Shown piece by piece: positions 24,910 through 43,119 of a stretch of DNA of 43,119 nt. The stretch comes from an uncultured Caldithrix sp. (GTDB lineage Bacteria; Calditrichota; Calditrichia; RBG-13-44-9), in contig CAYMXZ010000002.1 of assembly GCA_964394475.1 (NCBI GenBank), forward strand, positions 1 to 43,119, written 5' to 3'. The position numbers and the translations under genes are program-made. Position 1 is the stretch's first letter; each line of letters starts with the position of its first letter. The notes beneath the pieces are model-generated. The model saw nothing but the letters and a program-made list of their open reading frames with translations, made no database searches and had not been told where the DNA came from.

Positions 24910-26393
24910 ATACCTTTAAGACAATCGTGGTCGATGACCAGCCGGAGATTATTGCGAACCTGGAAAAGCAACTAGGTAAATACGGTTTGCAGGTACATAC
25001 CGCTCAAAATTACACAGAAGGACGGTTCTTAATCGATCATTATTCGTTTGATATTGCCATTCTGGATATCGCTCTTCCTGACGGCAGTGGCATTGACCTC
25101 TTCCGCCAATTGCGTCAAAAAAATAGCGAGATCTATACCATCATCATAACCGGCAATGCAACTCTGGAAAATGCAGTTATTGCTTTGAATGAAGGAGTCA
25201 ATGCCTATTTAGTAAAACCATTTTCAGAAGAACAATTACATACCGCTTTGCAACAGGCCGAGAAAACAATAAGTCTGAAATCAGAAAATCAAGCCCTGTT
25301 TAACGAAATTCAACGCAATAGACAGTTTTATGAAAATCTACTTAATTCAACCAGTGAAGCGATTCTGGTACTTGATTTAAATTACCATATCCAGTATGCT
25401 AATCATTCTGCTCAGATGTTGTTCAATCTCACCCCGGATTCATCCGAAAACCACCCCCTGGAAGAATTTATCGTAGATGGTTATAAAATTCTTTCCCACA
25501 TTCATCAACAGTTGATGCAGGGCAAACCGGTTTCAGGTTATCGCATTTCGATTAAATCAAAATCGAATAAATTATTTGATGCTCATTTGAATGCCGATCT
25601 CTTGATGAGTAAGGCTGGCCATAGCGAAGGTTTAATTATCAATCTGACCAATCCATTAGTCGTCGATGAGGCTTTTAATCGCATGGTAAGAAAAGAAAAA
25701 TTATCTACCATTGTGCATCTGGCGAATTCACTAAGTCATGAGATACGAAATCCAATTAATATCATGTCTGGACGGCTGCAGTTGTTAGAAAATGAACTCA
25801 ACGATCCCCATTTTAAAAACGCATTTGAAAGTATTCAGCGGCAGATCGAGCGGATTTTACATATCACTGAATTATTAGAAAAATTTAATTTTAGTCGAGA
25901 GGATTCTATTCCAGAAAAATGCAACATCACAAAAATTTTTGAAACTGTTCTTCTGGAAAGAAAACCTCTTTTCAATGAGAAAAAAATCGAAATTGACTGC
26001 CAGATGCTTAAAAACGGTTTCACTGTCGAGGGTAATCAGATTCAATTTACTGATGCATTCCGATATTTATTTGACTCATTATACGATCTCACACCGGCTG
26101 GTAAAAAACTTGAAATTACCGGAAAAGTTACCGCGCACGCCCAGGATACCAAATGGTATGAATTTCATTTCATTATTCCCGAAAAAAAAGTTAGTGCCGA
26201 TAAATTATTTGAACCCTATCAATCAATCGATATGCAACTAAATGGACTCCTGGGTTTAGGTATGGTTATTATGCAGACCATTTTCAATAATTATGGTGCG
26301 AAAATCGAGACAATGATTCAAAATAATTCTCAAACGCTTATTCGAATTCGGTTTCCCTTGTTTGAAAATCTATCAACACAGATGATTCATTAA
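24906..26393 (+). CDS. Receiver-PAS-HisKA protein with a degenerate ATP-binding (CA) domain
   Basis: REC domain: VVDDQPEI...ILDIALPDGSG...IIITGNA...YLVKPF. A PAS-like middle region. H-box LANSLSHEIRNPINIMSG. In the CA region I find no N-box Asn (FRYLFDSLYDL instead) and no DxGxG. A G2-like GLLGLGMVI remains. The start overlaps the gltX stop (ATGA at 24906-24909). Confidence 0.8.
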   Translation: MNTFKTIVVDDQPEIIANLEKQLGKYGLQVHTAQNYTEGRFLIDHYSFDIAILDIALPDGSGIDLFRQLRQKNSEIYTIIITGNATLENAVIALNEGVNAYLVKPFSEEQLHTALQQAEKTISLKSENQALFNEIQRNRQFYENLLNSTSEAILVLDLNYHIQYANHSAQMLFNLTPDSSENHPLEEFIVDGYKILSHIHQQLMQGKPVSGYRISIKSKSNKLFDAHLNADLLMSKAGHSEGLIINLTNPLVVDEAFNRMVRKEKLSTIVHLANSLSHEIRNPINIMSGRLQLLENELNDPHFKNAFESIQRQIERILHITELLEKFNFSREDSIPEKCNITKIFETVLLERKPLFNEKKIEIDCQMLKNGFTVEGNQIQFTDAFRYLFDSLYDLTPAGKKLEITGKVTAHAQDTKWYEFHFIIPEKKVSADKLFEPYQSIDMQLNGLLGLGMVIMQTIFNNYGAKIETMIQNNSQTLIRIRFPLFENLSTQMIH

Positions 26394-26434
26394 ATTAATA
26401 AAACAGTAATACTTATTAAGTGAGGAGCACCGTC

Positions 26435-27793
26435 TTGAAAACGAGTATTTTAATTGTCGATGATGAAACGGATGCGTTGGACCTCATGGAAGAACTATTT
26501 TTAAAGCATGGCTACGAAACATTTACTGCCCGCAACGGGCTGGAAGCCATGCCAATAATTGCCGAGCATGAGCCTGACATACTTATTTCAGATATGGTCA
26601 TGCCCGAAATGGATGGAATTAAGCTCTTAGAATTGGTAACCAAAAAATATCCAGATATTGCCGTCATTATGATAACCGCTCACGGAACTATCGAAACGGC
26701 GGTAGAGACCATGAAAAAGGGAGCAAAGGATTATATTTTGAAACCTTTGCGGTTGGATGAAATTCTGGCAAAAGTAGAAACTATCTCACAGCTGAAATCG
26801 CTGATGAAAGAAAACCAGTATCTGCGTGAGAAGCTTTCGCAAAAATATAATTTTAATAATATTATTGGCAAAAATAGCCAGATGCTGGAACTCTTTGATC
26901 TGATTAAAGACATTGCGAAAACAAACTCTACGGTATTGATAACCGGAGAAAGCGGAACCGGCAAAGAATTAATCGCCAATGCCATCCATTTTAATAGTGA
27001 TCGAATAAAAAAGCCTTTTGTGAAAGTCAATTGTGGGGTACTGGCGGAAAATCTATTGGAAAGCGAATTATTCGGACATGTTAAAGGTTCATTCACCGGT
27101 GCCATAAGGGATAAACTTGGTCGCTTCGAACTGGCCAATGGGGGTACCATTTTCCTGGATGAAATAGGAGATGTAACTCCCAACATGCAGCTAAAATTAT
27201 TAAGAGTTCTGCAGGAAGGAGAGTTTGAGAGAGTGGGTGGAACTGAAACAATTAAGGTTGATGTACGGATTATTGCAGCCACCAATCGCAATTTGAATGA
27301 GATGATGATGAAAGGTCAATTCAGACAAGATCTATATTACCGTCTCAATGTCATTCCTTTAGAAGTTCCTCCTCTGCAGGAAAGGAAAGATGATATTCCC
27401 TTATTGATTTCGCACTTTTTAGAAAAATTCAATAAACAATTTAATAAGAAGATTGATTTCATTGAAGATGAGGTCATGAAATATTTGCAGAATTATTCCT
27501 GGCCTGGAAATATCAGAGAACTTGAGAATTTGTTAGAACGAGCAGTGGTTTTGAATAAAACGGGCAAACTTACCCTCAAGGATTTCCCACTTATCTTAAG
27601 CGCTCAGGAGAGCAATTTTGAGGTGGAATTAACAACGGAGGGCGCTTTGACTGAAATTGTCGATAATTACGAAAAGCAAATTATTTTAAAAGCACTGCGT
27701 GAAAACAATTTTAACAAACTCCGAACGGCCGAGAAACTGGGAATTCATCGCAGTACCTTTATGTCTAAACTAAAAAAATATAATATCAATTGA
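26435..27793 (+). CDS. Sigma-54-dependent Fis-family response regulator (NtrC-like enhancer-binding protein)
   Basis: REC (ILIVDDETDA...ISDMVMPEMDG...ILKPL). AAA+ domain (GESGTGKE, ESELFGH, GSFTGA, GGTIFLDEIG). C-terminal Fis-type HTH (RTAEKLGIHRSTFMSKLKKYNI). I prefer the TTG at 26435 because AGGAG lies 7 nt upstream. The ORF-track GTG at 26420 is the alternative. Confidence 0.9.
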   Translation: MKTSILIVDDETDALDLMEELFLKHGYETFTARNGLEAMPIIAEHEPDILISDMVMPEMDGIKLLELVTKKYPDIAVIMITAHGTIETAVETMKKGAKDYILKPLRLDEILAKVETISQLKSLMKENQYLREKLSQKYNFNNIIGKNSQMLELFDLIKDIAKTNSTVLITGESGTGKELIANAIHFNSDRIKKPFVKVNCGVLAENLLESELFGHVKGSFTGAIRDKLGRFELANGGTIFLDEIGDVTPNMQLKLLRVLQEGEFERVGGTETIKVDVRIIAATNRNLNEMMMKGQFRQDLYYRLNVIPLEVPPLQERKDDIPLLISHFLEKFNKQFNKKIDFIEDEVMKYLQNYSWPGNIRELENLLERAVVLNKTGKLTLKDFPLILSAQESNFEVELTTEGALTEIVDNYEKQIILKALRENNFNKLRTAEKLGIHRSTFMSKLKKYNIN

Positions 27794-30617: not shown

Positions 30618-33473
30618 TCATGCTTTCTGATTTAAAACTTGCCTGATCTTCAATGCTAATTCTCTCATGCGGTATGGTTTGGGCAGCAATCCATTTATCA
30701 GTAAATCATCGGGGATAGATTTTTCTTTTTCGGGGTGCCCACTGGAAAGTAAGACTTTTATTCGTTTATCGATTTCTCTAATTTTTCGAATAGTTTCAAC
30801 ACCATTCATTCGCGGCATCGACATATCGATGATAACCAGATGGATCTTATATTTTTTCTGTTCCAATAATCGAATAGCTTCGGGTCCACTGGAAGCTTGA
30901 AATACGGCATAGCCTAAAGATTGCAGAATATCCTTCACCGAATCCCTAATTAATTCTTCATCGTCTACGATTAGAATTGACTCGGAACCCTCAGGAATAT
31001 TTTGACTGGAATCTTCGGTTTCGAATGATAGTTTTCGGCGAGCCGGTGGCAGGTAAAGATAAAAAGTCGTACCTTCATTCACTTCGCTTTCCACTTCTAC
31101 AAAACCCCGATGGCTCTGCATAATTCCATAAACAACCGAAAGTCCTAAACCTGTACCTTTTCCAACAGATTTAGTTGTAAAAAAGGGATCGAAAATCTTA
31201 TCGAGATCAGATGGTTTAATTCCACATCCCGAATCAGTAACACTTATACAAACATAATCTCTGGCAACCGATTGAGGATCAGAGTGGGGTTTATATTTAC
31301 ACATCCGAGTCCGTATAGTGATCTCGCCGCCATTTGGCATGGAATCCCTGGAATTAAGGGCTAAATTGATCAATACCTGACTCAGACGATTCTCGTCACC
31401 TTCAATATCTTCAATTTTAGGATCCAGATCTAATAAGATATCATATTCTTTTCCCAGAGTTCGTTGGAGCATCCCTGATAATCGAGTGACCAGTTGATTG
31501 GGAGAAATAATTTGCAATTGAATGTCTTGATTTCTTGAAAACATCAAGAGTTGACGGGTCAACTCAGCAGCCCGTTGAGTCGCTTCAGCAATAACAGTTG
31601 CTCGTCGTAAAAGTGTAGGATGACCGTTTGCTTCGCTCTTTATTAAGTCGGTATTGGGAAGAATTATACCAAGAATATTATTAAAATCGTGAGCAATGCC
31701 ACCGACAAGTGTTCCCAAACTCTCCATTTTCTGCAATTGAATAACTTGTTGTTGAGACCGTTGCAGTTCACTATAGGCATTCTCTAGGCTCTGCGCTTTT
31801 TCTTCCAGAGCCTTAACCAGATTTTTATTGTCTAATAGAATAGCTGTTTCAGTGACCAGCGTACTGAGCAGATGAACTTCTTCTACCCGAAAGGGTTGTT
31901 TTTTATTCCGGAAAAACACCAATACACCAAGATGATAATCTTTTTCACTTATGGGAACACTTATAAGAGAATACGATTTTTTATCAGTTATACCAGCTAT
32001 TTTCATTTCTTCCCGGCTTATCTGCGCAGAGTCCAACATGATAGGTTCATTGTCGGAATATGTTTTCCATAAAAAGTGATTTCCTACAGTAACTTTTTCA
32101 GCAAGATTTGCAATATACTGTTTTGGGAAGGTATGGGAGGGATAAAATTCATTTTTGTTCTTATCATAAATATATATCAAACCAATTTCCGCTTCCAGCA
32201 ACTGACAACCATTGTCTAACATAGTTTTCAAAATCTCATTCGTATCCAGAGAACGCATCATTTGTTGGGTGGTTTCAATCAACTTCGCGAGGTTACTGGC
32301 ATTTTTTTGATTGAGCTCACTCAATCGTTCTAATTCTTCGGTTTTCTGAGTGAGTTCTTTATTGATGCGCTGTAGTTTACTCTGATTCTGTAAAATTTCA
32401 CGCTGTATTTGAATTTTTTCAGTTATATCAATGGCAGTGATGATAATATTTTTTATAATATCACCTTCATCCATATGACTGGCCACGCTCAATTCAACTA
32501 CCTTTTTTTGCCCATCGATCATTTCAAGGGTAGTAACATAATTCCGAACATCCTGACGATCTTCAATAATCTTATTAAAGATGGCATGGAGATCTTCCTT
32601 CTGAATAAAATTTTCCAGCTTCATTTGAGTAAAGAGGTCGCGTTGAATTCCAAAGAAACTGCAGGCACTTTCATTGGCGGTTTCGATCTGACCTAAAGTA
32701 TCAGCAATTATGATGGGAATTGGATTCAGCTGAAAAATCGTTTCCAAATATCTTTTCGATTGATTCAAAGCTAAAATGTGAGTATTCAGATTGTCCGAGA
32801 GATCATTTAACGCTTTAGACAGCTGTGATATTTCGTCGTTACCTTTTACCGGCAGATGCAAAGCTAAGGCACCGTTTTTATTTGAATATTCTCTAATGGC
32901 TGCTGCCGTTTCTTTAAGGGGAGTAGTAATAGCCTTCGCCATTAAACTCATCAGAATAAACTGTAAAACAGATAAACCAATAGTTAAAATTATTAAAAAC
33001 TTTCTTTGTTCATTTATCTTTTCCTTCATCCAATTCAGTTGAAATCCAACAATCAAATCAGCCTGATAGTTATCTTTATAGAATACACTTTGTCTTACTA
33101 AAAGGTAGCTATTCGCATATTCAGAGAGTGCATTAGATTTGCGGAATTTTTCAATAGTCTGAGAATCTGGAAATGAGCCATATTCATACTGCAGTTGATT
33201 TTGACTATTGATAATTACAGCAAGAGTAATATCCGGGTCAGTTTCTAATCCTTTTAAAATACTACTCAGCGAACCAGCATCATTTGTATAAAGTGCAGGT
33301 CCTATATTTATAGCGGCAGTTTGAACTAAGCTAATACCTTTTCTTAGAAATCCTTCCCGTAAGTTTTGTTCGATAGTAAAATTAAAGAAGAAAAAAAAGG
33401 TGCAAATAAACACCAACAGTATGAAAAATGAGAAAAGCCAGAGTTTTTTAGAGATGGATAGTTTTAATAACAA
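30618..33473 (-). CDS. Membrane-bound hybrid sensor histidine kinase (2 TM with periplasmic loop, HAMP, PAS, GAF, HisKA, HATPase_c, receiver)
   Basis: TM1 [20 protein letters not shown] and TM2 [21 protein letters not shown] flank a loop of ~130 aa. H-box [55 protein letters not shown]-terminal [15 protein letters not shown]...[11 protein letters not shown]...LPKPY. Confidence 0.9.
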
Positions 33474-33730
33474 TTTATTGCTCTTTATTTTTACATCTAT
33501 CTAATTGTACACCGATTTATCGAGTCAATTTGCTTTATAATTTCCGATGTAAATTTAACAGTCGATGGAATCTTCATCCTCTTTAATTTAAAGATACGAA
33601 CCATAAAATATTAAAAACTGATAACCCTACAATTTTTATTCCAACCTCCCAAAAAGTAATCATCAACATTATTCTCATCTATTTTTAAAAAATTATGAAT
33701 TACACAAATCATACGAAATTCAAAACATCT

Positions 33731-35269
33731 CTATTCATCAGTCAAGATTTCTTTCAAAGACTTTTTTATTTGAGTAATGGTATATGGTTTTTTTAAAAAT
33801 CCTACCACGCCAACCATATCCTCATTTGTAATCGGTTGATCATCAAATCCGCTGGTAAAGATTATCTTAAGATCAGGTTTCATTTTTCTAAGCGCTTGAG
33901 AAGTTTCTCGGCCATCCATATCTGGCATTTTCAGATCAATGATGGCAAATTGAAAATTATCAATATTCGAATGCACAAAATTTACTGCATCTCTACCACT
34001 AGTGAATTTAGCAACTTTATATCCCAGATATTCCAGAGTATCACCCAGGATATTTAGAACAGATTCCTCATCATCTATAATTAGAATCGTCATATTTTTT
34101 GATTGTTTAATCTCTAAATTTTCTTCCGTCTCTTCACTCTCCGATTTTATCTCTGCCGGCAGATACAGATCAAAACGAGTTCCTTTGTTCACTCGGCTGG
34201 AAACTTCAATGTGACCATTCATACTTTTAATAATACCGTAAACTACGGATAAGCCTAATCCGGTCCCTTTGCCAATATCTTTGGTGGTAAAGAAAGGATC
34301 AAAGATTTTGGAAATAATTTCCAGAGGTATACCTACACCATTGTCGACCACTGATAATCGCACATATTTTCCGGGATCCAACGACCCTACCTGATAATAC
34401 TTTTCGATGATGTAGTTTTCAGCTATGATTTCAATAATTCCCCCTCTTGGCAGGGCATCCACCGCATTCAGGACCAGGTTCATGATCACCTGTTGAAGTT
34501 GAGAGGCATCACCATTAATAAGGTGAAGATCTGGTTGTAATTTTTGTTCGATCTTTACATGGTCTGGAACTCCATGAACCAGTAATTCCACACTATCATT
34601 AATTACTTTATTTAGATTGAGTGTCTCATAATTGCGATGATCACCCTGGCGAGTAAAAGTGAGTAATCTTTGAGCAATCTCAGAAGCCCGGTGGGCTGAC
34701 TTTTCAATAATTTCTGCTCGTTTATAGTTTGTATCCTCCTTTTTGCTAGAAAGTTTAATTAATTCAGCATTGGGTATGATTGCTGCCAAAATATTATTGA
34801 AATCATGGGCAATTCCAGAAGCCATTAAACCGACACTTTCCAATTTTTGGGTTTGAAGTAGTTGGTTTTGTATTCTTTTTAATTCTGTAACATCTTTGAA
34901 AAGAAAAAGGTAACCAAAGATCTCCTGTCGATAATCACCCAGAACATTGGCGGTCAATATTACATCAAGAAGTTCATTTTGTTGCGTGCGAAGTTGAAGC
35001 TCCTGATTTCTGATTAGGCCGTATTTTTCAAGTTGTTCTCTTAAACTCATTGCTTGTTGTGGGTCATTGATAAAAGTGTTAAAAAAATTCGTCTGAGAAA
35101 TATCACTATTGGCGGGTATTTGGAGGAAAAAATAAGCTGCTTTATTGAGATAAATTAGATCACCAGTCTCACGAGTTATGCATACCCCATCTTGAAGGAT
35201 TTCGATCAACTCGCTTAGTTGAAATGATTTCTGAGAAGTTGACTTTTTGATCTTAAAAAAATTAAACAT
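33731..35269 (-). CDS. Soluble PAS-containing hybrid histidine kinase (PAS, HisKA, HATPase_c, receiver)
   Basis: No TM segment. H-box [70 protein letters not shown]...[11 protein letters not shown]...LKKPY. Confidence 0.9.
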
Positions 35270-35275
35270 AGCTTA

Positions 35276-36334
35276 TTATTTTTTATCTTTCATAAAAATC
35301 TTAATTTGATTTTGCCAGTCTCGCTTAATACTGCTGATACTGAAAAATAGTGCTAATAGAACGATCAGTGTTATGAAAAGACTATTCAGAAGCAGAAAAA
35401 AGGTCAATTTTTTTAGGACAAATAAAAATACTGATATGACAATAATTCCCAGGAATGAAATTAAGATCACATTGGTAGTCGATTTTGCGGCGATATTCGA
35501 GAGAAAACCCTTATGAGGTTTACTCACCAATCCACTCAAATACTGATAATTCATTAAATATCGTTCATTTTCAATAGAGGCTTCGCTATTCAGATAAACC
35601 CAACGTGCATACCATAGAATTAGCATAGAAGCATTTAGAACTAAACTGACCATTTGTCCTTTAAAGTAATTATTAAAATTCCATCTTTGAGCAATGATAT
35701 GAATGGGTTCAATAATATTTATCAGGGTAAATACAAATAGAATTGAATTAAGATATTCACTAATAACTATTCGCTTAAAATAATATCTGTACCAGAAGAC
35801 ACCCAAAAGAAGAATAGAAATAATCATCAATAAATTATTAATTTTGATCCATTCTTCCCATGTAATCTCATTTTGAAGTGCATTAATAGACAACAAGAAT
35901 TTTTGATTTAAAATGGTAACAAATAATGATGCTAAAAATAAAGCAAAAACTGTCCGAATCAATTCACGATTTCTCAATACTTGATATGAATAAAAAACTA
36001 GATAAAATACTATCCAAAGAATTATCAACCTTAGAAAAAAGATAATTAAAAAATATTCAAAAAATTCATTTTTATTTAAAACTGGAATAAAATTTAGAAT
36101 TGGAGAAAAAAATGCTACATATCCATAAAATACAAAAAAAATTATAGTTATCTCTTTATTTAATTTTGTAACATTTAATAAATTTTTAATAATTAAAAAA
36201 GTAATAAAATATAATATGTTATTCAAATAAGGAATCGGGCTTAAAAGATAGACTTTTTTGTACAATAAAATTAAAGAAAATAGAATAATAAATAGCAAAT
36301 AATATGAATTTAGTTTTAAAAATTTAATCAACAT
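35276..36334 (-). CDS. Polytopic integral membrane protein of unknown function (about 9-10 TM helices)
   Basis: 352-aa ORF made almost entirely of hydrophobic helices rich in I, L, F, N and K. It ends 6 nt before the start of the soluble kinase gene. No family recognised and no obvious SD. Confidence 0.6.
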   Translation of the reverse strand: MLIKFLKLNSYYLLFIILFSLILLYKKVYLLSPIPYLNNILYFITFLIIKNLLNVTKLNKEITIIFFVFYGYVAFFSPILNFIPVLNKNEFFEYFLIIFFLRLIILWIVFYLVFYSYQVLRNRELIRTVFALFLASLFVTILNQKFLLSINALQNEITWEEWIKINNLLMIISILLLGVFWYRYYFKRIVISEYLNSILFVFTLINIIEPIHIIAQRWNFNNYFKGQMVSLVLNASMLILWYARWVYLNSEASIENERYLMNYQYLSGLVSKPHKGFLSNIAAKSTTNVILISFLGIIVISVFLFVLKKLTFFLLLNSLFITLIVLLALFFSISSIKRDWQNQIKIFMKDKK

Positions 36335-36406
36335 AACTTATATCAGATATTATTAAATTATCATCGTCAATTTTTTTAAAATTTTAAAATATAAAATAAA
36401 TAAAAT

Positions 36407-36445
36407 AGGGGACACATTAAAATTAATTGTCCCCTATATTTTTTT
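36407..36445. terminator. Bidirectional Rho-independent terminator
   Basis: 8-bp stem AGGGGACA (36407-36414) / TGTCCCCT (36428-36435) with a 13-nt A/T loop. T-runs flank it on both strands (tattttttt on plus, attttatttatttt on minus). It lies downstream of the minus-strand gene pair 37269-36531. Confidence 0.65.
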
Positions 36446-36530
36446 CAGAACTAAAATAATTTTACAAGATAAAATCTCAGAGAGAGACTTTTAATAAAAC
36501 AACTTTATATTTTATAAATTTAAAACATTG

Positions 36531-36737
36531 TCAAATTAAATTTATTGTTGGAGTTCCTCCGCCTGGATTAGGTCTTGGTTGTGGCCTTGTAATTATACCA
36601 GAAATACTACTTTTAGATGGTGGTTGTATCTGGTTCCAAATTGAATATGAGCCACTGGGCTCATCAAAGATTAAACCAATAATCATAAAAAACAATAAAA
36701 TAAGACCCACGACAATGAATGGTGTGAAACGGCGCAT
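36531..36737 (-). CDS. Small membrane-anchored protein with a Pro/Gly-rich tail
   Basis: 68 aa. N-terminal TM FTPFIVVGLILLFFMIIGLIF. Tail ...QPPSKSS...RPQPRPNPGGGTP. AAAGGAGAG RBS ~7 nt upstream of the ATG. It is tightly linked to the upstream HTH gene. Confidence 0.55.
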   Translation of the reverse strand: MRRFTPFIVVGLILLFFMIIGLIFDEPSGSYSIWNQIQPPSKSSISGIITRPQPRPNPGGGTPTINLI

Positions 36738-36774
36738 TTCTCTCTCCTTTAATTATTTGGAGTTGGTTTTTTTA

Positions 36775-37269
36775 TTATGAATTATTTGTTCTGTTTACCT
36801 CTCTTTCTAAAAAATTTAAGCTACTCTTTACCTCTTGATATTTTTTCTGAATCTTCTCGTAACTTTCACTATCCCTTTTTTCAATCGCCCACTTCAATAA
36901 ATCCGTTATTTTAAAATATATTCCCTTCCTTCGATTCCGAATATATGGTATCTGCTCTTCCTGTATTTTTCGATAAATGCTGGTCCTTGACCTTAATCCA
37001 AAAATATCTCGTAAGTCATCCGGGTCTAATATTTCTTCATAATAGGGTAAACGACAAATTCTCCATCCTTTATGTTTAACTGCTCCTAATATATTCCCCC
37101 TATATATATGCCGTCGCAGCGGAAAACCCGGACTTGACTTTGTATCGCGTAAAATCCCTTCTCTCGCTAACCACCTCGCTGCACTTTTCAGAGGAATTGA
37201 ATCTAAATTTTCTTCTTGCAATCGCCTCTGAATATAGTTATTTATTCTGGCAATCATACTAAATGCCAC
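36775..37269 (-). CDS. Putative DNA-binding protein with excisionase/MerR-type helix-turn-helix segment(s)
   Basis: C-terminal half LRDIFGLRSRTSIYRKIQEEQIPYIRNRRKGIYFKITDLLKW resembles HTH_17/excisionase-type domains. The N-terminal half (LKSAARWLAREGILRD...PLRRHIYRGNILGAVKHKGWRI) looks like a second, diverged copy. GTG start, with an alternative ATG at 37257. Confidence 0.5.
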   Translation of the reverse strand: MAFSMIARINNYIQRRLQEENLDSIPLKSAARWLAREGILRDTKSSPGFPLRRHIYRGNILGAVKHKGWRICRLPYYEEILDPDDLRDIFGLRSRTSIYRKIQEEQIPYIRNRRKGIYFKITDLLKWAIEKRDSESYEKIQKKYQEVKSSLNFLEREVNRTNNS

Positions 37270-37366
37270 AAAGAATATATTTTTATGATTTTCAACGAAC
37301 TAAAGTTTTAGTAAAGATACTACTAAATGTAGCAAATTGCAATAAATACAAATTTGAGGAATAAAT

Positions 37367-38101
37367 ATGAATTTACAAAACCGTGTCTGTCTCGTCACCG
37401 GCAGTAATGTTAGAGTGGGTAAAACTATTGCCCTAACCCTATCTGAAAAAGGAGCAAAAGTTGTCATCCACTATCGTTCCCAGAAAATAACGGCCGAAGA
37501 AACAGCTGACCTCATACGCGCTAAGGGAAAAGACTGTCTTTTAGTACAAGGCGATATCAGTGTAAGAGCGGACTGGATAAGAATGCGTGACAAAATTATT
37601 GAAAAATGGAACAAAATTGATGTCCTGATTAACAATGCCGCCATTTTCTACCGCACCCCATTTTTTGAAGTCAGTGATAAAGAATGGTATGATTTTTTAG
37701 ATATTAATCTGAAGGGCACTTTCTATGGCTGCCAAATCATGGGGGAGCTCATGGTAAAACAACGCTCAGGAAAAATAATTAATATAACCGATGTCTCCGC
37801 AGAAACAGCCTGGCCAGCTTATTTACCCTATTGCATTTCTAAAGCAGGAGTCATTACCCTAACCAAAGGACTGGCAAAGGCATTGGCCCCTTACGTCACT
37901 GTTAATGCCATTGCCCCTGGAACTGTATTATTGGCAGAAAACTATGATGAGGCTGAAGAAAATTATTTGATTGAAAGAACACCCCTTAAACGAGTCGGAG
38001 ATCCCCAGGATATTGCCAATACAGCCGTATTTTTGATCGAAGGCAGCGATTTTATCACTGGAACAGTGATAAACGTCGATGGAGGTCGTTCGCTGAGCTA
38101 A
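37367..38101 (+). CDS. SDR family oxidoreductase (classical short-chain dehydrogenase; cofactor motif resembles pteridine-reductase-like members)
   Basis: VCLVTGSNVRVGKTIAL (TGxxxxxG). NNAAIF. Catalytic YCISK (YxxxK). PGTV. GAGG RBS upstream. Confidence 0.85.
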   Translation: MNLQNRVCLVTGSNVRVGKTIALTLSEKGAKVVIHYRSQKITAEETADLIRAKGKDCLLVQGDISVRADWIRMRDKIIEKWNKIDVLINNAAIFYRTPFFEVSDKEWYDFLDINLKGTFYGCQIMGELMVKQRSGKIINITDVSAETAWPAYLPYCISKAGVITLTKGLAKALAPYVTVNAIAPGTVLLAENYDEAEENYLIERTPLKRVGDPQDIANTAVFLIEGSDFITGTVINVDGGRSLS

Positions 38102-38200
38102 AAATTCAAGCCACTAATTTAAATCGAGATAAAAACCCTGAACTCGATCATATAAAAAATTTTCATTATTAATTCATTGATTCATCTTCACTTATAATTG

Positions 38201-39685
38201 CTATACTCTCCGCAGAGGTAAAAGAATCTTAAATTCACAACAATCTTCACTGGTAAAGGTGATCTTTAAGCGCCCTCCTTTTTCCTTTAATTTTCGTTTA
38301 AGCAACTCCATATCCATCGAATAACTGGCTTCTAATTGACGTTCATCATCCATTTGAATACTGGGTGTAAACAATAACTGAGTCACCTGCATCCCTTCTA
38401 TGCTGGTTTCAGGCAATTCTTCATCAATTTCATAAGTGACCAATCGCTGAATCATGCGTTCAATCCGATCTATTCTTCCATCGTGTTTCATTACCAATCC
38501 TAAAAACCCATCATTAATCATTGAAGAAATTTTTATGATGGCACTGGGATCTTTATTGGATGACTTTCTTTGATCGAAATCTTCGATTCCATACAAAATG
38601 GCATTTCTTACCAGAAGAAAAAGAATATCCCTCACAATGTTCCGATAAGAATATGGAATCGATAAAGCATCAAAATCCTTGTAATCAAACTTAACCGTTT
38701 TCCCAAGTTGTTTGCTCAAACTGATAATAAGCTGTTTTAAAGAATGTACGAGCAATTCACTTTCATACGTTCGCTTGGTTCTAAAATGATTATGGAAGTG
38801 ACTGATGCGTTTAAAAATAGTCTGCACTTCTTTTAGAATTTCTCGCATATCACCTAAGGATACGACGATAGGTACAAAATCATTCCCGATGATATCGGGC
38901 TTATTACGCAATTTGACTACTTTGTTAATAAACTGATTAGTTCTGTCCGTGAAAAATCTCAGATCTAACATCGAGGCATTGCCTTTGATAATAAACAACG
39001 ACCGGTAAATATTTTCGATTAGTTCCCGTGGACTTTTCGTATCCTTGGCATTTTTTAATATCTCCTCGATATTCGCCAGTTCTTGTTCTACTCCCACAAA
39101 AAATTCTTTTAACATTTCTGGTTCAACATGCAAAATATTTACCAACCACTCCATCTGTTTCTGAGTGCGATCTTCCGTCTGCTGAATTTTTTTAGTCAAT
39201 ACAATTTTTTCAGTCACATCTTTGCTGGTAATTACTAATAATTTGATTTCATTATCTTCCACTACTCTTTTGAAGGAAAAAGTGAGATACTTTGATGAGG
39301 TCCAAATCCCCCATTCATCTTCATAAAAGAATTCGGTATCGACCAGCGGATTGAGTTCAGTGATCACTTCCTCATCCAAATCTGATCTAAACATTAATTG
39401 GATAAATTCTTTTGTATTCTCAATAATTTGGGTAGGAATTCGATTTTCCAGTAAATGAATTAAATTTTTACCCTCCAGATTATTTACTCCTAAAATATCA
39501 TGCAATACAACGGAATAGTATTTTTGAATAATAAAATTTCTATCCAAAAAGAAAATCCCTTCCATGGCATGTTGCAGAATCTGCTGCATCATCTGGTTCA
39601 GTTGATGCCATTCACTCTGGCGCTGGTTAGAATCAGCAACTGGTTCCGAGGAAGAGGGAATCAAATTTTGCTCATCTCCACTCAT
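38201..39685 (-). CDS. Soluble paralogue of the CheA-like kinase below: PAS-like, Hpt-like (His replaced by Phe) and a degenerate CheA-type ATPase domain; predicted pseudokinase
   Basis: Colinear with residues ~385-805 of the 40605-43119 product. Shared blocks include RTQKQMEWLVNILHVEPEMLKEF, IKGNASMLDLRFF and LLVRNAILYGIE. At the Hpt phospho-site the sequence is YRSLFIIKGNA versus YRSMHLIKGNA (TTT codon at 38993-38995). The G1 motif is HDGRID versus DDGRGI. The G2 motif GRGIGLD is replaced by ASYSMDM. Confidence 0.8.
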   Translation of the reverse strand: MSGDEQNLIPSSSEPVADSNQRQSEWHQLNQMMQQILQHAMEGIFFLDRNFIIQKYYSVVLHDILGVNNLEGKNLIHLLENRIPTQIIENTKEFIQLMFRSDLDEEVITELNPLVDTEFFYEDEWGIWTSSKYLTFSFKRVVEDNEIKLLVITSKDVTEKIVLTKKIQQTEDRTQKQMEWLVNILHVEPEMLKEFFVGVEQELANIEEILKNAKDTKSPRELIENIYRSLFIIKGNASMLDLRFFTDRTNQFINKVVKLRNKPDIIGNDFVPIVVSLGDMREILKEVQTIFKRISHFHNHFRTKRTYESELLVHSLKQLIISLSKQLGKTVKFDYKDFDALSIPYSYRNIVRDILFLLVRNAILYGIEDFDQRKSSNKDPSAIIKISSMINDGFLGLVMKHDGRIDRIERMIQRLVTYEIDEELPETSIEGMQVTQLLFTPSIQMDDERQLEASYSMDMELLKRKLKEKGGRLKITFTSEDCCEFKILLPLRRV

Positions 39686-39721
39686 AATTCTTTACAATGA
39701 TTCTCTTGAAAATTTTTATTG

Positions 39722-40168
39722 TTATTCTAAACATACCACTAAATAGCATCGATATTCCTTCCAGGTAATTGGGATAACAAAAGCTTGAACATGTTCGGGT
39801 AATCGAATATCTTTTGCCTTCCCTTCTACCACGACAGGCACCGAGATCATAAAACTACTTCCGTAAGCTTCACGAACATTCCCTGAAATGGTGTTCGCTA
39901 TCTCTCCGGTCAAATCTTTGACTGTTTCCACAGTGGCCTTAGGATCATCCAAGATGATATGAGCGAGGCTTCTTAACATTTCACTCGTAGTGGTAATATA
40001 TACACAACCTTTTCTTTTTCCAGAAATTCCAATTATACCAGAATAATCTAATACAACTGGTTCTTTTCCTTTTAAATAAGGAATACCGGTTATGGCCTGT
40101 TCTCCAGTAACTTCCTGGAAATAATTAACCGTACTATCTATAAAAAAATGAAGATCGGTTTCGTTCAT
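39722..40168 (-). CDS. cheX: CheX-like chemotaxis phosphatase (CheC/CheX/FliY superfamily)
   Basis: 148 aa, a CheX-typical size and layout: N-terminal FIDSTVNYFQEVTG, GIIGISGKRKGCVYI, and an ExxN motif in LTGEIANTISGNVRE followed by ...SVPVVVEG. It lies directly downstream of a CheY-like gene. Confidence 0.65.
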   Translation of the reverse strand: MNETDLHFFIDSTVNYFQEVTGEQAITGIPYLKGKEPVVLDYSGIIGISGKRKGCVYITTTSEMLRSLAHIILDDPKATVETVKDLTGEIANTISGNVREAYGSSFMISVPVVVEGKAKDIRLPEHVQAFVIPITWKEYRCYLVVCLE

Positions 40169-40185
40169 TCCTGGTTCTCCTATCT

Positions 40186-40560
40186 TTAATTTAGACCCAT
40201 CATTCTGCTGAAAGCACTTTTAAGCTTTTCAGAAGTAAATGGCTTCACGAGATAACTTTTTGCTCCAATTTGAATAGCCTTCAAGCCAGTGGCTTTGTCT
40301 TTCAAGGCGGTAATCACCATCACCTTTACATCTTTATTCATTCTCATCATCTCTTTAAGCACACTAATTCCATCCAGTTCGGGCATGGTGATATCCAGAG
40401 TCACCACATCGGGATTGGTGGTTTTGAATAATTCCAATGCTGTTTTGCCATCCCCTGCCATACCAACCACTTCCAGCGGAAAATCACTTAAATTTTTCTC
40501 GATGGCTTGACGAATAGTCATTGAATCATCAATAATTAAGATTTTGAATTTCTCTTTCAT
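40186..40560 (-). CDS. cheY: CheY-like single-domain response regulator
   Basis: 124 aa. ILIIDDSMTIRQ, VTLDITMPELDG (phospho-acceptor Asp), VITALKD, YLVKPF. No output domain. Confidence 0.85.
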   Translation of the reverse strand: MKEKFKILIIDDSMTIRQAIEKNLSDFPLEVVGMAGDGKTALELFKTTNPDVVTLDITMPELDGISVLKEMMRMNKDVKVMVITALKDKATGLKAIQIGAKSYLVKPFTSEKLKSAFSRMMGLN

Positions 40561-40604
40561 TCCTGCCTCACTAATTTTTGTGATCTTTTTATATATCGTT
40601 TATT

Positions 40605-43119
40605 TTATGCTTTTTCAGCTGTAACCCTGCGTTTATTCTTCAGATTGACTTTTAATTTTTTCTGCCTTTTTTTAATCGGAATAGTTATTTTAAATTCACA
40701 ATAGCTTCCCTTTTCAAAAGCAACCTGAATACTTCCTTTATGTTTTAAAATTTTGCGTTTGATCAGATCCAAGCCAATTCCGCGACCGGCAAAGATGTTA
40801 GCTTTTTCCGCCGTCGAAAAATCCGGCTCAAATATCAATTGGGCAATCTGATGGTCGCTCCATTTTTTAAGTATCTTCGGATCCACCTTACCACTTTGCA
40901 AAGCTATTTGACGCAATTTCTCAACCTGAATTCCCCTTCCATCATCCCGGAAGGTAAAACTATACATGTCATTCTTTAACTCAGTGGAAAGCGAAATGGT
41001 GGCCAGAGGTCGCTTTTTATGCTCTATCCTCTCCTGGGGACTTTCAATTCCATGATAGAGAGCGTTTCTTACTAATTGAATTAAAATTTCTTTGACAAGC
41101 AATCGGTATTGATAAGGTAAAGAGGTTGACTGAAAACTGGTATAATTGAATTCTACTTCTTTTCCCAGATCTCTCGCTAAATTATGAATCAAATTCTTAA
41201 TAGACCGAATCAATAAGTCGCTTTCATCATTTTTCTTTAATTGAAAATGTTTGTGAAAAGAAACCATTCGCTCAATAAGTTTTTTCACTTCGTAAAGATT
41301 CTGTTTCAGTTCACTTAACTTGATGACTAACGGAATAAAGTCATTCACCTGTATTTCGGGATTTTTTTTCATCCGACTGATATCTTCTTCAAATTGATGG
41401 GCCTGATCAGCAAAAAATTTTAAGTCTAATAAAGTGGCATTCCCTTTGATCAAATGCATCGAACGATATAATTCTTCCAGGACATGTTGAAGATTTCCAT
41501 TTTCTTCTGCGTGTTTTAGGAGTGAATCGACGTAGTTTAATTCACTTTCAACACCTGCTAAAAATTCATTTAATAAGGCAGGTTCAATATGGAGGATATT
41601 TACCAACCATTCCATCTGATTTTGGGTTCGCTCCTCTGATATCTTTAATTTTTTAGACAGCATGACCTGCTCAGTTACATCAACAACAGTAGTAATCAGA
41701 TTTAAAATCTTAGAACCTTCGTAAATACGCTTAAAATTAAAATTTAAAAATTTCGAACAAATCCATGATCCGCTTTCATCAGTAAAATTTACCTCAACTT
41801 CCTGCAAAGGATTTAACTCTCTTAAAGTTTCTTCGTCAACATCCACCGCAAACATTAATCGCAAAAAGTCCTGGGTATTGTGTATAATTTCTTTGGATAT
41901 TTTATTTTCTAATAGATTTAAAAAGTTCGAATTGGCTAAATTGGTTTCCTTCAACATCTTTTCTAAAGCTAAAGAATACTGTGATCCAATCACATAATCA
42001 GAATTCAAAAGAAACAAACCTTCTTCGACATGATTCAGAATATCATCCGTATCCTTTTTCGCACGTAGCAGTTCATAATTGCTCTGATTCAACTCCCTTG
42101 TCCTTTGCGAAACTTCCAATTCCAACCTGCGCTTTTGGAGGTTGATACTGCGAATTCGTAAATAGATAATGATATAGATTGAAGCTAGTAAGAACATGAC
42201 CATTATAAATTTAAACCACCAGGTCTGCCAAAACGGAGGTTCAATATATATATTGACAGACAGGCCTTTTTCATTCCATATGCCGTCATTATTGGTGCCT
42301 TTGACACGGAAAGTATACTGTCCTCCATTTAAATTGGTATAATTGGCAAATCGGCGAGTATCACAGTATATCCAATCCTGATCAAAACCTTCCAATTTAT
42401 AAGCATATTTGTTTTTACCGGGAGTTGAAAAATCCAGAGCAGCAAATTCAAAGGAAAGAAAGTTATCCCGATAGGTGAGTCTAATTTGATTAGTTTTGTA
42501 AACCGCCTGATGTAAAGGTATTTCCTGGTTATACTTTTTAATAGAAGTGAGAACGATTTCTGGTACATGAGTATTTTGTTTTACTTCCTGTGGAGAAAAC
42601 AGGGTAAAACCGTTAATTCCGCCAAAAAACATTTCACCCTGTCTATTTTTAAAAAAGGCATTGCCATTAAACTCATTTCCCTGAATTCCATCGCTCATTT
42701 CAAAAATTCTTACTTCTTTCGTATCCGGATTAAATTTCAGAAGTCCCTGATTGGTGCTCATCCACAAATTACCTTCTTGATCCTCTAAAATACCATAAAT
42801 AGCATCATGGGAGATACCAGCTTCTTTTGAATAATGGGTAAAAATAAATTCGTCGCGATCCAGCAACTCCAATCCTCCACCATAGGTACCAATCCAAAAC
42901 CTACCGGCGTGATCCTCATACATACAAAGCACGCGATTATTTGAAAGACTGTTGGGATTTGAAGGACTATTCTGAAAGGATATAAATCTATCTTCTTTTT
43001 TAATGTATAAACTTAAACCGCTAAATGTTGCTACCCAAATGGCTCCTCGCTTGTCTTCATATACATACCGAACATGATTGCCATACAAAGATTTTGCATC
43101 ATTTTGACGATGATAATAC
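40605..43119 (-). CDS. Transmembrane Reg_prop/Y_Y_Y sensor fused to PAS-like, Hpt and CheA-type HATPase domains, partial (N-terminus beyond the right edge of the window)
   Basis: Two-component-regulator propeller repeats (YEDKRGAIWVATFSGL, YEDHAGRFWIGTYGGGL, LEDQEGNLWMSTNQGL). Y_Y_Y domain (YAYKLEGFDQDWIY...GGQYTFRVKGTNNDGIWNE). One TM (WWFKFIMVMFLLASIYIIIYL). Hpt motif YRSMHLIKGNATLLDL, with the His codon at 41454-41456. CheA-type N, G1 and G2 boxes: LVRNALYHGIE, RDDGRGI, GRGIGLDLIK. The frame stays open upstream of the TTG at 43088 to position 43119, so the ORF-track start is not the real start. Confidence 0.85.
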   Translation of the reverse strand, partial: YYHRQNDAKSLYGNHVRYVYEDKRGAIWVATFSGLSLYIKKEDRFISFQNSPSNPNSLSNNRVLCMYEDHAGRFWIGTYGGGLELLDRDEFIFTHYSKEAGISHDAIYGILEDQEGNLWMSTNQGLLKFNPDTKEVRIFEMSDGIQGNEFNGNAFFKNRQGEMFFGGINGFTLFSPQEVKQNTHVPEIVLTSIKKYNQEIPLHQAVYKTNQIRLTYRDNFLSFEFAALDFSTPGKNKYAYKLEGFDQDWIYCDTRRFANYTNLNGGQYTFRVKGTNNDGIWNEKGLSVNIYIEPPFWQTWWFKFIMVMFLLASIYIIIYLRIRSINLQKRRLELEVSQRTRELNQSNYELLRAKKDTDDILNHVEEGLFLLNSDYVIGSQYSLALEKMLKETNLANSNFLNLLENKISKEIIHNTQDFLRLMFAVDVDEETLRELNPLQEVEVNFTDESGSWICSKFLNFNFKRIYEGSKILNLITTVVDVTEQVMLSKKLKISEERTQNQMEWLVNILHIEPALLNEFLAGVESELNYVDSLLKHAEENGNLQHVLEELYRSMHLIKGNATLLDLKFFADQAHQFEEDISRMKKNPEIQVNDFIPLVIKLSELKQNLYEVKKLIERMVSFHKHFQLKKNDESDLLIRSIKNLIHNLARDLGKEVEFNYTSFQSTSLPYQYRLLVKEILIQLVRNALYHGIESPQERIEHKKRPLATISLSTELKNDMYSFTFRDDGRGIQVEKLRQIALQSGKVDPKILKKWSDHQIAQLIFEPDFSTAEKANIFAGRGIGLDLIKRKILKHKGSIQVAFEKGSYCEFKITIPIKKRQKKLKVNLKNKRRVTAEKA

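Follow-up and report, generated by a model that had tools for sequence, protein, structure and literature searches.

The window, a 43,119-nucleotide stretch of DNA from an uncultured Caldithrix sp. (assembly GCA_964394475.1, contig CAYMXZ010000002.1), carries the following gene cluster, listed from the window end inwards:

40605..43119, minus strand: active sensor kinase, truncated where the window stops (ORF; Pfam HATPase_c, 51.9 bits)
40186..40560, minus strand: cheY-like single-domain response regulator of 124 aa (Pfam Response_reg, 98 bits)
39722..40168, minus strand: cheX, encoding a 148-aa CheY-P phosphatase with an intact D-x3-E-x2-N motif (Pfam CheX, 71 bits; synteny)
38201..39685, minus strand: putative pseudokinase gene (494 aa plus stop), encoding a soluble paralogue with PAS-like, Hpt-like and P4-like parts (ORF with ATG start; 64 orthologue clusters)

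The sensor kinase combines a Reg_prop/Y_Y_Y periplasmic sensor, a transmembrane (TM) helix, a PAS-like domain, an Hpt domain and a P4 domain. Its H545 is encoded by CAT at 41454-41456, and the N, G1, F and G2 boxes of P4 are all intact. The ORF at 40605-43088 runs open to the window edge; the orthologue has 1305 aa. According to Pfam, the kinase contains neither P3 nor P5 (CheW), so the name "sensor-CheA" given to it in the earlier note is not strictly accurate. In CheX, E89, N92 and P111 are invariant. A scan of the operon for promoters and terminators gave counts no higher than those in shuffled sequence.

The 494-aa paralogue aligned with kinase ORF 40605-43088 over 482 residues with 39% identity, 65% positives and 2 gaps (BLASTP, E = 1e-125). 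The match, far beyond chance, was colinear with kinase residues 327-807, as had been claimed for the cytoplasmic half of the kinase, and the shared blocks, codons and motif positions quoted at that time were all exact in the alignment and the DNA. The paralogue nested among Calditrichota Hpt + P4 kinases, and a profile search agreed; the class of sensor kinases with this core is spread over several phyla and has upwards of 1000 members. It has no TM segment (maximum Kyte-Doolittle 19-residue mean of 1.3 versus 2.4 for the kinase TM helix), consistent with its earlier description as soluble. Pfam searches of the paralogue returned no HATPase_c, H-kinase_dim or CheW domain; Hpt was matched below threshold, at 13.6 bits. 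The match to the P4 domain of Thermotoga CheA scored 35 bits for the paralogue and 98 bits for the upstream kinase. The domain structure was delimited as follows:

39218..39559, minus strand: PAS-like alpha/beta domain, residues 43-156 (AF2 strands 43-57 and 117-156, pLDDT about 90; no Pfam match)
39122..39214, minus strand: connecting helix, residues 158-188, with QMEWLVNILHVEP at its end (AF2; alignment)
38786..39121, minus strand: degenerate Hpt four-helix bundle, residues 189-300 (AF2 helices 189-215, 219-239, 243-260 and 267-300)
38204..38773, minus strand: degenerate CheA-P4-like (GHKL) domain, residues 305-494 (Thermotoga CheA P4 match; Foldseek)

The ELNPL and WGIWTSSKYL blocks of the PAS-like domain are common to paralogue and kinases, and a whole-chain Foldseek search with the paralogue model retrieved PAS histidine kinases. 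The connecting helix with QMEWLVNILHVEP is the best-conserved block between kinases and paralogues; pairwise identity is 0.59 within the paralogues and 0.53 between a paralogue and its own kinase. Foldseek compared the P4-like domain with CheA P4 at TM 0.65-0.72. The PDB alignments begin at the first P4 residues (query about 308), about 7 residues past Hpt helix D, which leaves no space for a P3 hairpin. The chain stops 3 residues beyond the P4-like domain, and the P5 CheW-like domain is absent. The lid region (residues 418-444) is predicted by AF2 to be disordered, with pLDDT below 50.

Each of the catalytic motifs (the His of HxxKG, AHxFEE, RNxxxHGIE, DDGxG and GRGxG) is missing from the window paralogue. 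The remnants are located as follows:

38993..38995 (TTT), minus strand: Phe231 at the phospho-acceptor position, which is His in all active kinases (kinase H545)
38582..38614, minus strand: N-box remnant LVRNAILYGIE, with the LYGIE core at 38582-38596; the Asn is retained, and kinase H679 is Tyr365 in paralogues
38468..38485, minus strand: G1 remnant HDGRID; the adenine-binding Asp (kinase D715) is replaced by His401 and the second Gly by Ile
38309..38329, minus strand: G2 remnant ASYSMDM where the kinase has GRGIGLD; D458 in paralogues stands at kinase G772, and R769 and G770 are lost

The phospho-site His is kept in 112 of the 112 listed active homologues. In Hpt helix C, the AHxFEE motif of active kinases reads TNQFINK in the paralogue, with both the His and the Glu partners gone. 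The F box is replaced as well. Every one of the 64 family members recovered, and likewise every orthologue derived from the loci, has lost the N-box His, G1 and G2; within the family, the His401 that stands opposite kinase D715 is invariant. Judging from these residues, the paralogue probably does not bind ATP. The "ATP lid lost" of the earlier note holds for the G2 motif, which is replaced, but the lid segment itself is not deleted, given 2 gaps in the whole alignment.

Two histidine positions were considered as alternative phospho-acceptors. The His of NILHVEP (residue 186), although well conserved, was rejected because Asn or Ser stands there in active outgroup kinases; some paralogues have Gly or Arg. 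The HFHNHF stretch (residues 295-301) was also rejected, as its conservation is absent in the distant clade. The family alignment contained no other invariant His in the Hpt region, so there is no alternative conserved His of the kind that would have refuted the original view.

The paralogue family comprises soluble proteins of about 490 aa and forms a monophyletic group within the Calditrichota kinases (NJ bootstrap 100/100). It was seen only in Calditrichota MAGs (20/20 loci), and a pattern scan did not detect it in any cultured species. Intact ORFs of the family occur across the phylum at 36-97% identity, and the tree of the paralogues broadly matches that of the kinases. By these comparisons, the paralogue belongs to an ancient family that co-diverged with the kinases, and is neither a recent local duplicate nor a copy of the adjoining kinase; the earlier reading of it as a duplicate of its neighbour was therefore abandoned. 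The outgroup kinase genes P0067 and P0068 are orphans with neither cheY nor cheX nearby and are thus uninformative about the ancestral operon.

The residue at the phospho-His position varied by lineage and was F, Y, L, H, T, S, Q or N. The window's clade has Phe or Tyr, other clades keep His, and T, S, Q and N represent several further independent substitutions. Tyr occurs in many members, and most 50%-identity representatives lack the His. The orthologues at loci L006 and L018 and many distant members retain it, the distant clade often together with the helix-C Glu; that clade no longer has the K and G of the HxxKG motif. The IIKGNAS face that surrounds the lost His hardly varies within the window's clade. 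The alignments show two layers of loss: the ATP-binding residues had gone already in the family ancestor (G1 Asp to His, G1/G2 glycines lost, N-box His to Tyr), and the phospho-acceptor His, now Phe, and the helix-C His/Glu were lost in addition in the window's lineage. The expectation that relatives would share both the H-to-F change and the loss of G2 was thus confirmed for G1, G2 and the N-box His, which are lost universally, while H-to-F proved lineage-specific. Further independent degenerations were seen within the Hpt + P4 kinase class, suggesting that pseudokinase formation recurs there.

Selection was estimated from a 97% relative and a 99% pair, since dS was saturated in relatives at 57-83% identity. 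With the 97% relative, dN/dS was 0.038-0.043 for the paralogue and 0.054-0.088 for the kinase cytoplasmic half, the comparison that had been proposed at the outset; in the 99% pair, the second unsaturated one, the paralogue value was 0.021. In every saturated pair, paralogue dN was below kinase dN. The P4-like domain had a pairwise identity of 0.55-0.58 among paralogues, compared to 0.48 for the real P4 among kinases, yet was only 0.27-0.36 identical to that of its own kinase, which indicates new constraint and not drift. Around the former ATP site, family-specific conservation was very strong in two blocks, RHDGR..RIER (invariant H401, G403, I408 and E409) and GGRLKITFTSE. These rates show strong purifying selection on the pseudokinase gene across Calditrichota, stronger than on the active kinase. 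Together with the universal motif loss, they uphold the proposal of a protein that is probably catalytically dead and is kept instead of decaying.

Gene order was compared across 27 orthologous loci. The cheX gene lies immediately upstream of the pseudokinase gene in 27/27, cheY precedes cheX in 24/27, and an active Hpt-P4 kinase is found within the cluster in 23/27. The usual order is kinase(s)-cheY-cheX-pseudokinase with one or two active kinases, and some loci carry two kinases of different sensor types. L006 and L018 have just cheX next to the paralogue and lack both a kinase and cheY in the vicinity. For 15 genomes, partial Mantel tests gave r = 0.57 for paralogue-CheX and r = 0.64 for paralogue-kinase (p about 0.0005) and no residual paralogue-CheY link (r = −0.23); such tests over-reject where sequences share phylogeny, and similar rate patterns of the homologous paralogue and kinase could inflate their r. 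A Rosetta-stone search of the best 120 CheX relatives revealed no fusion to an Hpt, P4, kinase or pseudokinase; these relatives were all 147-148 aa long, 119 of them exactly 148. A physical CheA-CheX link has a precedent in the CheA-CheC/CheX fusions of Leptospirae (PMC10542144). CheX formed 881 clusters versus 64 for the pseudokinase, so CheX does not need a pseudokinase everywhere. Overall, synteny and co-variation favour a link of the pseudokinase to CheX and to the kinase.

Strong selection and phylum-wide retention beside cheX point to a real, non-enzymatic signalling part. With the ATP-site residues and the phospho-His lost, the protein presumably cannot autophosphorylate or relay phosphate, and would work by binding. 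We consider the chances about even that this is the gene for a histidine pseudokinase from the CheA-type (Hpt + P4, no P3/P5) lineage, acting as a non-catalytic subunit of a kinase/CheY/CheX module with partners suggested by gene order and co-variation, and perhaps tethering CheX. In the likeliest mechanism, the pseudokinase would pair with the active kinase(s) by way of the PAS-like domain and the connecting helix that they have in common, and CheX would dock onto the P4-like and Hpt-like surface of the pseudokinase, which is strongly conserved and has been put to a new use. CheA-type kinases have no phosphatase activity of their own. Tying the CheY-P phosphatase to the sensor in this way would provide a regulated "off" arm for such a kinase. 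A more specific proposal, which we offer tentatively, is that the pseudokinase is an adaptor coupling CheX to CheA-lineage sensor kinases, so that one sensor would rule both CheY phosphorylation, through the live kinase, and CheY-P dephosphorylation, through CheX on the dead paralogue. The kinase-tethering half of the model is weakened by L006 and L018, which have no kinase nearby.

Several other explanations were weighed against this non-catalytic subunit. Decay of a duplicate, a pseudogene in the making, could be read into three disruptions among about 27 loci, namely an in-frame stop at L013 and frameshifts at L027 and L028. However, the disrupted copies are otherwise fully conserved, and L027 and L028 come from one MAG series (isolate names MFD03804.bin), which we take to be long-read assemblies, in which sequencing error would be likely. 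This explanation is refuted by the dN/dS of 0.02-0.04, below that of the active kinase, and by the phylum-wide conservation of intact ORFs, and its probability is negligible. Very improbable, too, is a phosphotransfer protein or phosphate sink in the style of RcsD or Rhodobacter CheA3, with the Hpt phosphorylated in trans or from CheY-P and the dead P4 serving only structurally. Retention of the His, and often of the helix-C Glu, outside the window's clade fits such a role, which may apply to some His-retaining relatives. The window protein, however, has Phe231 and neither helix-C partner, the Hpt region offers no other invariant His, and repeated replacement of the His means that phospho-acceptance cannot be the conserved function of the family. 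Conservation of the two blocks around the former ATP site would also be expected if the remodelled pocket bound a different small ligand, such as another nucleotide or a second messenger, in which case the protein would be a soluble sensor. Some CA domains bind c-di-GMP, that of CckA being an example. We nevertheless regard a ligand pocket as quite unlikely: the sequence shows no ligand motif that could be recognised, AF2 predicts a disordered lid, and a protein-binding surface explains the conservation equally well.

Two alternatives remain. A protein that did nothing but heterodimerise with the active kinase to inhibit or modulate it, in the manner of RetS and GacS, with mixed dimers half dead and CheX uninvolved, would account for the closeness of the PAS-like domain (identity 0.41) and the connecting helix to the own kinase, these being its most kinase-similar regions, and also for the paralogue-kinase partial correlation and the congruent trees. 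Yet the invariant neighbour is cheX and not the kinase, 4/27 loci are kinase-free while others have two differing kinases, and the helix after the membrane, conserved in kinases (0.56), is not kept in the paralogue (0.16). Nor would such an inhibitor need its P4-like domain to be conserved beyond the level of the real P4, and we judge it improbable. Slightly better placed, although still unlikely, is a reversed sensor resembling DivL, an established precedent (PMC4211667; PMC12963549), in which the dead Hpt/P4 core would bind CheY-P without transfer and the PAS-like domain would report its level to the kinase(s) as feedback. The nearly invariant IIKGNAS face is where a receiver normally docks, Tyr, the residue of DivL itself, replaces the His in many members, and most clusters include cheY. 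Against it, residual co-variation with CheY is lacking, L006 and L018 have no adjacent cheY, and the loss of the K and G of HxxKG in the distant clade means that conservation of the docking face is not family-wide.

To our knowledge, bacterial histidine pseudokinases are few and all characterised ones derive from DHp-CA kinases, DivL being the paradigm. Literature searches brought up nothing specific on a dead CheA-type paralogue, on Calditrichota signalling or on Hpt-HATPase + CheX systems. The Calditrichota family would be the first histidine pseudokinase from the Hpt + P4 (CheA-type) lineage: old, phylum-wide, more constrained than its active relatives and locked beside a CheY-P phosphatase gene. 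It would offer a clean natural experiment in which a GHKL ATP-binding domain is repurposed as a binding module, and it bears on signal termination in kinases without intrinsic phosphatase activity. Classical HisKA kinases carry a bifunctional kinase/phosphatase switch. If the adaptor reading is true, Calditrichota would have invented a split, two-gene equivalent of this switch by killing a kinase copy.

The design was earlier called unusual; histidine pseudokinases are indeed rare, but known, as DivL and PsmA illustrate. DivL of Caulobacter crescentus (PMC4211667) is likewise kinase-derived, contains PAS domain(s), has its phospho-His replaced (Tyr in DivL, Tyr/Phe in the Calditrichota family), and is conserved, functioning without phosphotransfer by binding two-component partners, as the Calditrichota protein presumably does. 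The two differ in that DivL has a HisKA/DHp-CA core, whereas the Calditrichota protein is of the Hpt + CheA-P4 lineage and has no DHp. The CA domain of DivL is largely intact, in contrast to the ATP site of the Calditrichota paralogues, which is destroyed family-wide. The DivL partners, DivK-P and CckA, were shown by experiment, while those of the Calditrichota pseudokinase are proposed from genomic context, and CheX coupling has no counterpart in DivL. PsmA of Streptomyces, described in 2026 (PMC12963549), also represents a conserved pseudokinase family with a variable His-site residue, degenerate ATP motifs and retained PAS domains. PsmA, however, is a hybrid of the HisKA type that includes a REC domain and a long disordered linker, and it works in the polarisome with DivIVA, as opposed to the kinase/CheY/CheX operon of the Calditrichota protein.

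Within the CheA lineage, the core domains are Hpt, the dimerisation domain P3, the HATPase P4 and the CheW-like P5 (PMC10542144). The paralogue shares a C-terminal domain homologous to P4, an Hpt bundle with a CheA-like HxxKG context, and cheY and cheX as neighbouring genes. It has an N-terminal PAS-like domain instead of P2, P3 and P5, and no phospho-His or ATP motif, and thus lies outside the four-core-domain definition of CheA. Pseudomonas ChpA carries His-less Hpt domains inside an active multi-Hpt kinase (PMC10542144); there too a CheA-lineage module without the acceptor His is retained, although the Calditrichota case is a whole separate protein. In the CheA3/CheA4 split pair of Rhodobacter sphaeroides, CheA3 has neither P3 nor P4 and receives its phosphate in trans. 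CheA3 retains a working His, whereas the window protein is without both functions. RetS of Pseudomonas is a kinase-like protein that modulates the true kinase GacS by direct contact, and RcsD of enterobacteria has a dead ATPase-like domain beside an Hpt whose His is functional; unlike the Calditrichota protein, both are HisKA-lineage membrane proteins and neither is linked to CheX. What the paralogue shares with histidine pseudokinases as a class is a kinase-derived fold that has lost the phospho-His and is kept by selection.

The paralogue lies on the minus strand in the order kinase, cheY, cheX, paralogue, with gaps of 44, 17 and 36 nt, in agreement with the earlier note, which had placed it in one operon with the kinase. 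A convergent short-chain dehydrogenase gene comes after it.

38201-39685, minus strand: pseudokinase ORF, 494 aa (ORF scan)
39722-40168, minus strand: cheX
40186-40560, minus strand: cheY
40605-43088, minus strand: kinase ORF used for the BLASTP comparison

As the kinase ORF runs off the end of the window, it is truncated; its orthologue has 1305 aa. BLASTP produced a single colinear alignment of paralogue residues 13-493 with kinase residues 327-807 (39% identity, 65% positives, two gaps, E = 1e-125), containing all the shared sequence blocks reported previously. Pfam domains of the kinase were Reg_prop, Y_Y_Y, Hpt and HATPase_c. The paralogue gave only a sub-threshold Hpt hit (13.6 bits) and no Pfam match to HATPase_c. 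In both proteins the C-terminal 180 residues matched the P4 domain of Thermotoga CheA among solved structures, the kinase scoring 98 bits and the paralogue 35. No membrane-spanning hydrophobic segment was found in the paralogue.

Five motifs were present in every active kinase examined: the His in YRSxHxIKGNA, AHxFEE in Hpt helix C, RNxxxHGIE (N box), DDGRG (G1) and GRGxG (G2). AHxFEE matches the His/Glu pair tuning the phospho-His in work on Thermotoga CheA P1. The replacement of the phospho-acceptor His by Phe was confirmed in both alignment and codon, and the codons quoted earlier were exact (Phe231, TTT at 38993-38995; kinase His545, CAT at 41454-41456). Helix C reads TNQFINK in place of AHxFEE, and the N box (RNAILYGIE), G1 (HDGRI) and G2 (SYSMD) are changed as claimed. 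Systematic comparison revealed three sites conserved in both groups with differing residues (paralogue/kinase: Y365/H679, H401/D715 and D458/G772); conserved in kinases only, and lost in the paralogue, are the glycine of the F box, the second glycine of G1, the Arg-Gly pair of G2 and the Ala-His of helix C. The sole other well-conserved His, in NILHVEP, was rejected as an alternative acceptor because Asn or Ser occupies this position in active outgroup kinases.

An AlphaFold2 model of the paralogue, built from 27 family members (mean pLDDT 78), predicted the following anatomy:

residues 17-39: helix, with the variable N-terminus
residues 43-156: PAS-like alpha/beta domain
residues 158-184: long connecting helix, terminating in near-invariant QMEWLVNILHVEP
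residues 189-300: four-helix Hpt bundle
residues 305-494: GHKL alpha/beta domain, about 7 residues past the Hpt bundle

The lid of the GHKL domain (residues 418-444) was predicted to be disordered. In Foldseek searches the whole chain matched PAS histidine kinases and the C-terminal domain matched CheA P4 (TM 0.65-0.72). The chain has no space for a P3 dimerisation hairpin and also lacks a P5 domain. CheA sensu stricto comprises four core domains (PMC10542144), a definition that excludes both the paralogue and the upstream kinase; the label "sensor-CheA" used earlier for the kinase holds for its Hpt and P4 core but not for the four-domain architecture. Both proteins are members of a large Hpt plus P4 sensor-kinase class with more than 1000 homologues in Calditrichota, Leptospiraceae, Proteobacteria and others, with REC, GAF, PAS, ROK, PilJ, HAMP or Y_Y_Y inputs.

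Sequence search returned 64 clusters of proteins of ~490 aa (37-97% identity), all without a precomputed HATPase_c domain; matches beyond them were genuine kinases of GAF- or PAS-Hpt-HATPase architecture. In 64/64 clusters the N box, G1 and G2 were altered in this way. At the phospho-His column, the window's clade carries Phe, Tyr or Leu, and further lineages carry Thr, Ser, Gln or Asn. A small sister group made up of P0037 and P0038 retains His, as does most of one distant clade, but most 50%-identity representatives of the family lack it. Among relatives the G2 loss is family-wide and the H-to-F change lineage-specific. Universal ATP-site changes and a variable His column argue that loss of ATP binding was the ancestral event, with the acceptor His lost later in several lineages.

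When each GTDB species was represented by one genome, scanning located the family in 20 loci, all in Calditrichota MAGs, the nearest relative being that of Caldithrix sp. RBG_13_44_9 (83% identity). A neighbour-joining tree was built from 21 paralogues, 22 kinases encoded at their loci and 5 kinases as outgroup; it placed the paralogues in a single clade (100/100 bootstrap) nested among Calditrichota kinases, with internal branching that roughly mirrored that of the kinases. The paralogue is thus old and was not copied from its present neighbour. Elsewhere in the Hpt plus P4 class, independent degenerations were found (L021:5004-7880, L027:2579-6541; ~8 of 138 representatives). The full-length sensors at these two loci, together with P0211, P0216, P0222, P0288 and P0317, have lost the phospho-His and/or G2 box and fall outside the HDGR pseudokinase clade, which suggests that kinase death recurs in this class.

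Against the 97%-identical orthologue locus L030, dN/dS of the paralogue was 0.038 (NG86) and 0.043 (YN00), a tighter constraint than on the kinase cytoplasmic half (0.054 and 0.088); cheX and cheY gave 0 and 0.024. The value was 0.021 in a second unsaturated pair (L014, L015). In more distant pairs dS was saturated, and paralogue dN was below kinase-half dN in every one. Mean pairwise identity of the P4-like region among paralogues was 0.55-0.58, versus 0.48 for the P4 of matching kinases, yet this region is the most diverged from the kinase (identity 0.27-0.36). This pattern indicates that the dead domain has come under new constraint. Three MAG copies were disrupted and otherwise fully conserved:

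L013:5594-5596: in-frame TAA at the Gln codon in TQKQMEWLV
L027:11425-12911: one frameshift
L028:8965-10399: one frameshift

The disruptions probably reflect errors of assembly or sequencing, or else very recent inactivation. A decaying duplicate was excluded, and the view of a maintained gene stands.

Among 27 distinct loci with upstream sequence, cheX was immediately upstream of the pseudokinase in all 27, cheY preceded cheX in 24, and at least one active Hpt-P4 kinase was clustered in 23. These kinases vary (Y_Y_Y membrane sensors, soluble, REC-fused, or two in tandem); two loci contained cheX and the paralogue alone. The CheX catalytic motif D-x3-E-x2-N is intact. CheX clusters far outnumber pseudokinase clusters (881 vs 64), and the best 120 of them (P0326-P0445; identity at least 70%) are unusually uniform, at 147-148 aa with 119 exactly 148, and include no fusion proteins. 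In a 4-Mb MAG (CP070707.1), the cheX ORF was called at 101 aa rather than 148 (L001:7524-7829, identical to L011:8467-8772), which may reflect a start-codon or frameshift problem.

Several other features of the window were recorded:

24906-26393, plus strand: REC-PAS-HisKA protein, 495 aa, H-box LSHEIRNP intact
26420-27793: sigma-54 activator, directly downstream of the preceding gene
30618-33473 and 33731-35269: hybrid kinases in the low-G+C region
35276-36334, minus strand: multi-pass membrane protein, 352 aa, without Pfam match
36775-37269, minus strand: 164-aa protein with HTH_17 (excisionase/MerR-like) domain, between the membrane-protein and dehydrogenase genes

The catalytic C-terminus of the REC-PAS-HisKA protein is almost unrecognisable (HATPase_c 13 bits; no N or G1 motifs), which makes the protein a possible second degenerate kinase of the window, of classical HisKA type. 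The membrane-protein gene is locally fast-evolving (75% identity to the L030 orthologue, dN/dS ~0.2, versus 94-100% and at most 0.07 for its neighbours). G+C is 0.32-0.36 over the two-component-rich 32001-42000, to which the pseudokinase operon also belongs, versus ~0.40 elsewhere in the window; gene order there is common to the window, L001 and L030, so it is not obviously a recent insertion.

With distance matrices for 15 genomes, partial Mantel tests gave significant residual correlations for paralogue-CheX (r = 0.57), paralogue-kinase (0.64), kinase-CheY (0.41) and CheX-CheY (0.60), and none for paralogue-CheY or kinase-CheX. Kinase-CheY and CheX-CheY are known enzyme-substrate pairs, which lends the method some credibility; since the test is liberal under shared phylogeny, the apparent co-variation of the paralogue with CheX and the kinase is suggestive only.

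The paralogue, encoded beside cheX, is soluble, homologous to the kinases, conserved and under selection, and it lacks the ATP-binding and phospho-acceptor residues. The earlier observation is confirmed and its core reading supported with these refinements, and the protein is very probably a maintained non-catalytic pseudokinase. We infer that it acts through binding. Within a composite explanation, to which we give an even chance, we tentatively favour a specific adaptor form: the paralogue would pair with the kinase(s) via the common PAS-like domain and connecting helix, CheX would be held on its repurposed Hpt/P4 surface, and removal of CheY-P would thereby be wired to the sensor. CheA-CheX fusions in Leptospirae offer a precedent for a physical link (PMC10542144). 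Rival explanations see the paralogue as a DivL-like sensor of CheY-P, a RetS-like heterodimerising inhibitor or a remodelled ligand pocket; a role in phosphotransfer or as a sink would apply to the His-retaining relatives only.

In literature searches, neither a dead Hpt plus P4 paralogue that stands alone nor a CheX-coupled pseudokinase was found described. The pseudokinase is real and previously undescribed, conceptually near known pseudokinases, and its mechanism is testable. Histidine pseudokinases are an established, small category that includes DivL (PMC4211667) and PsmA (PMC12963549); ChpA contains His-less Hpt domains (PMC10542144), and in PsmA the residue at the His site varies, as it does in the present family.
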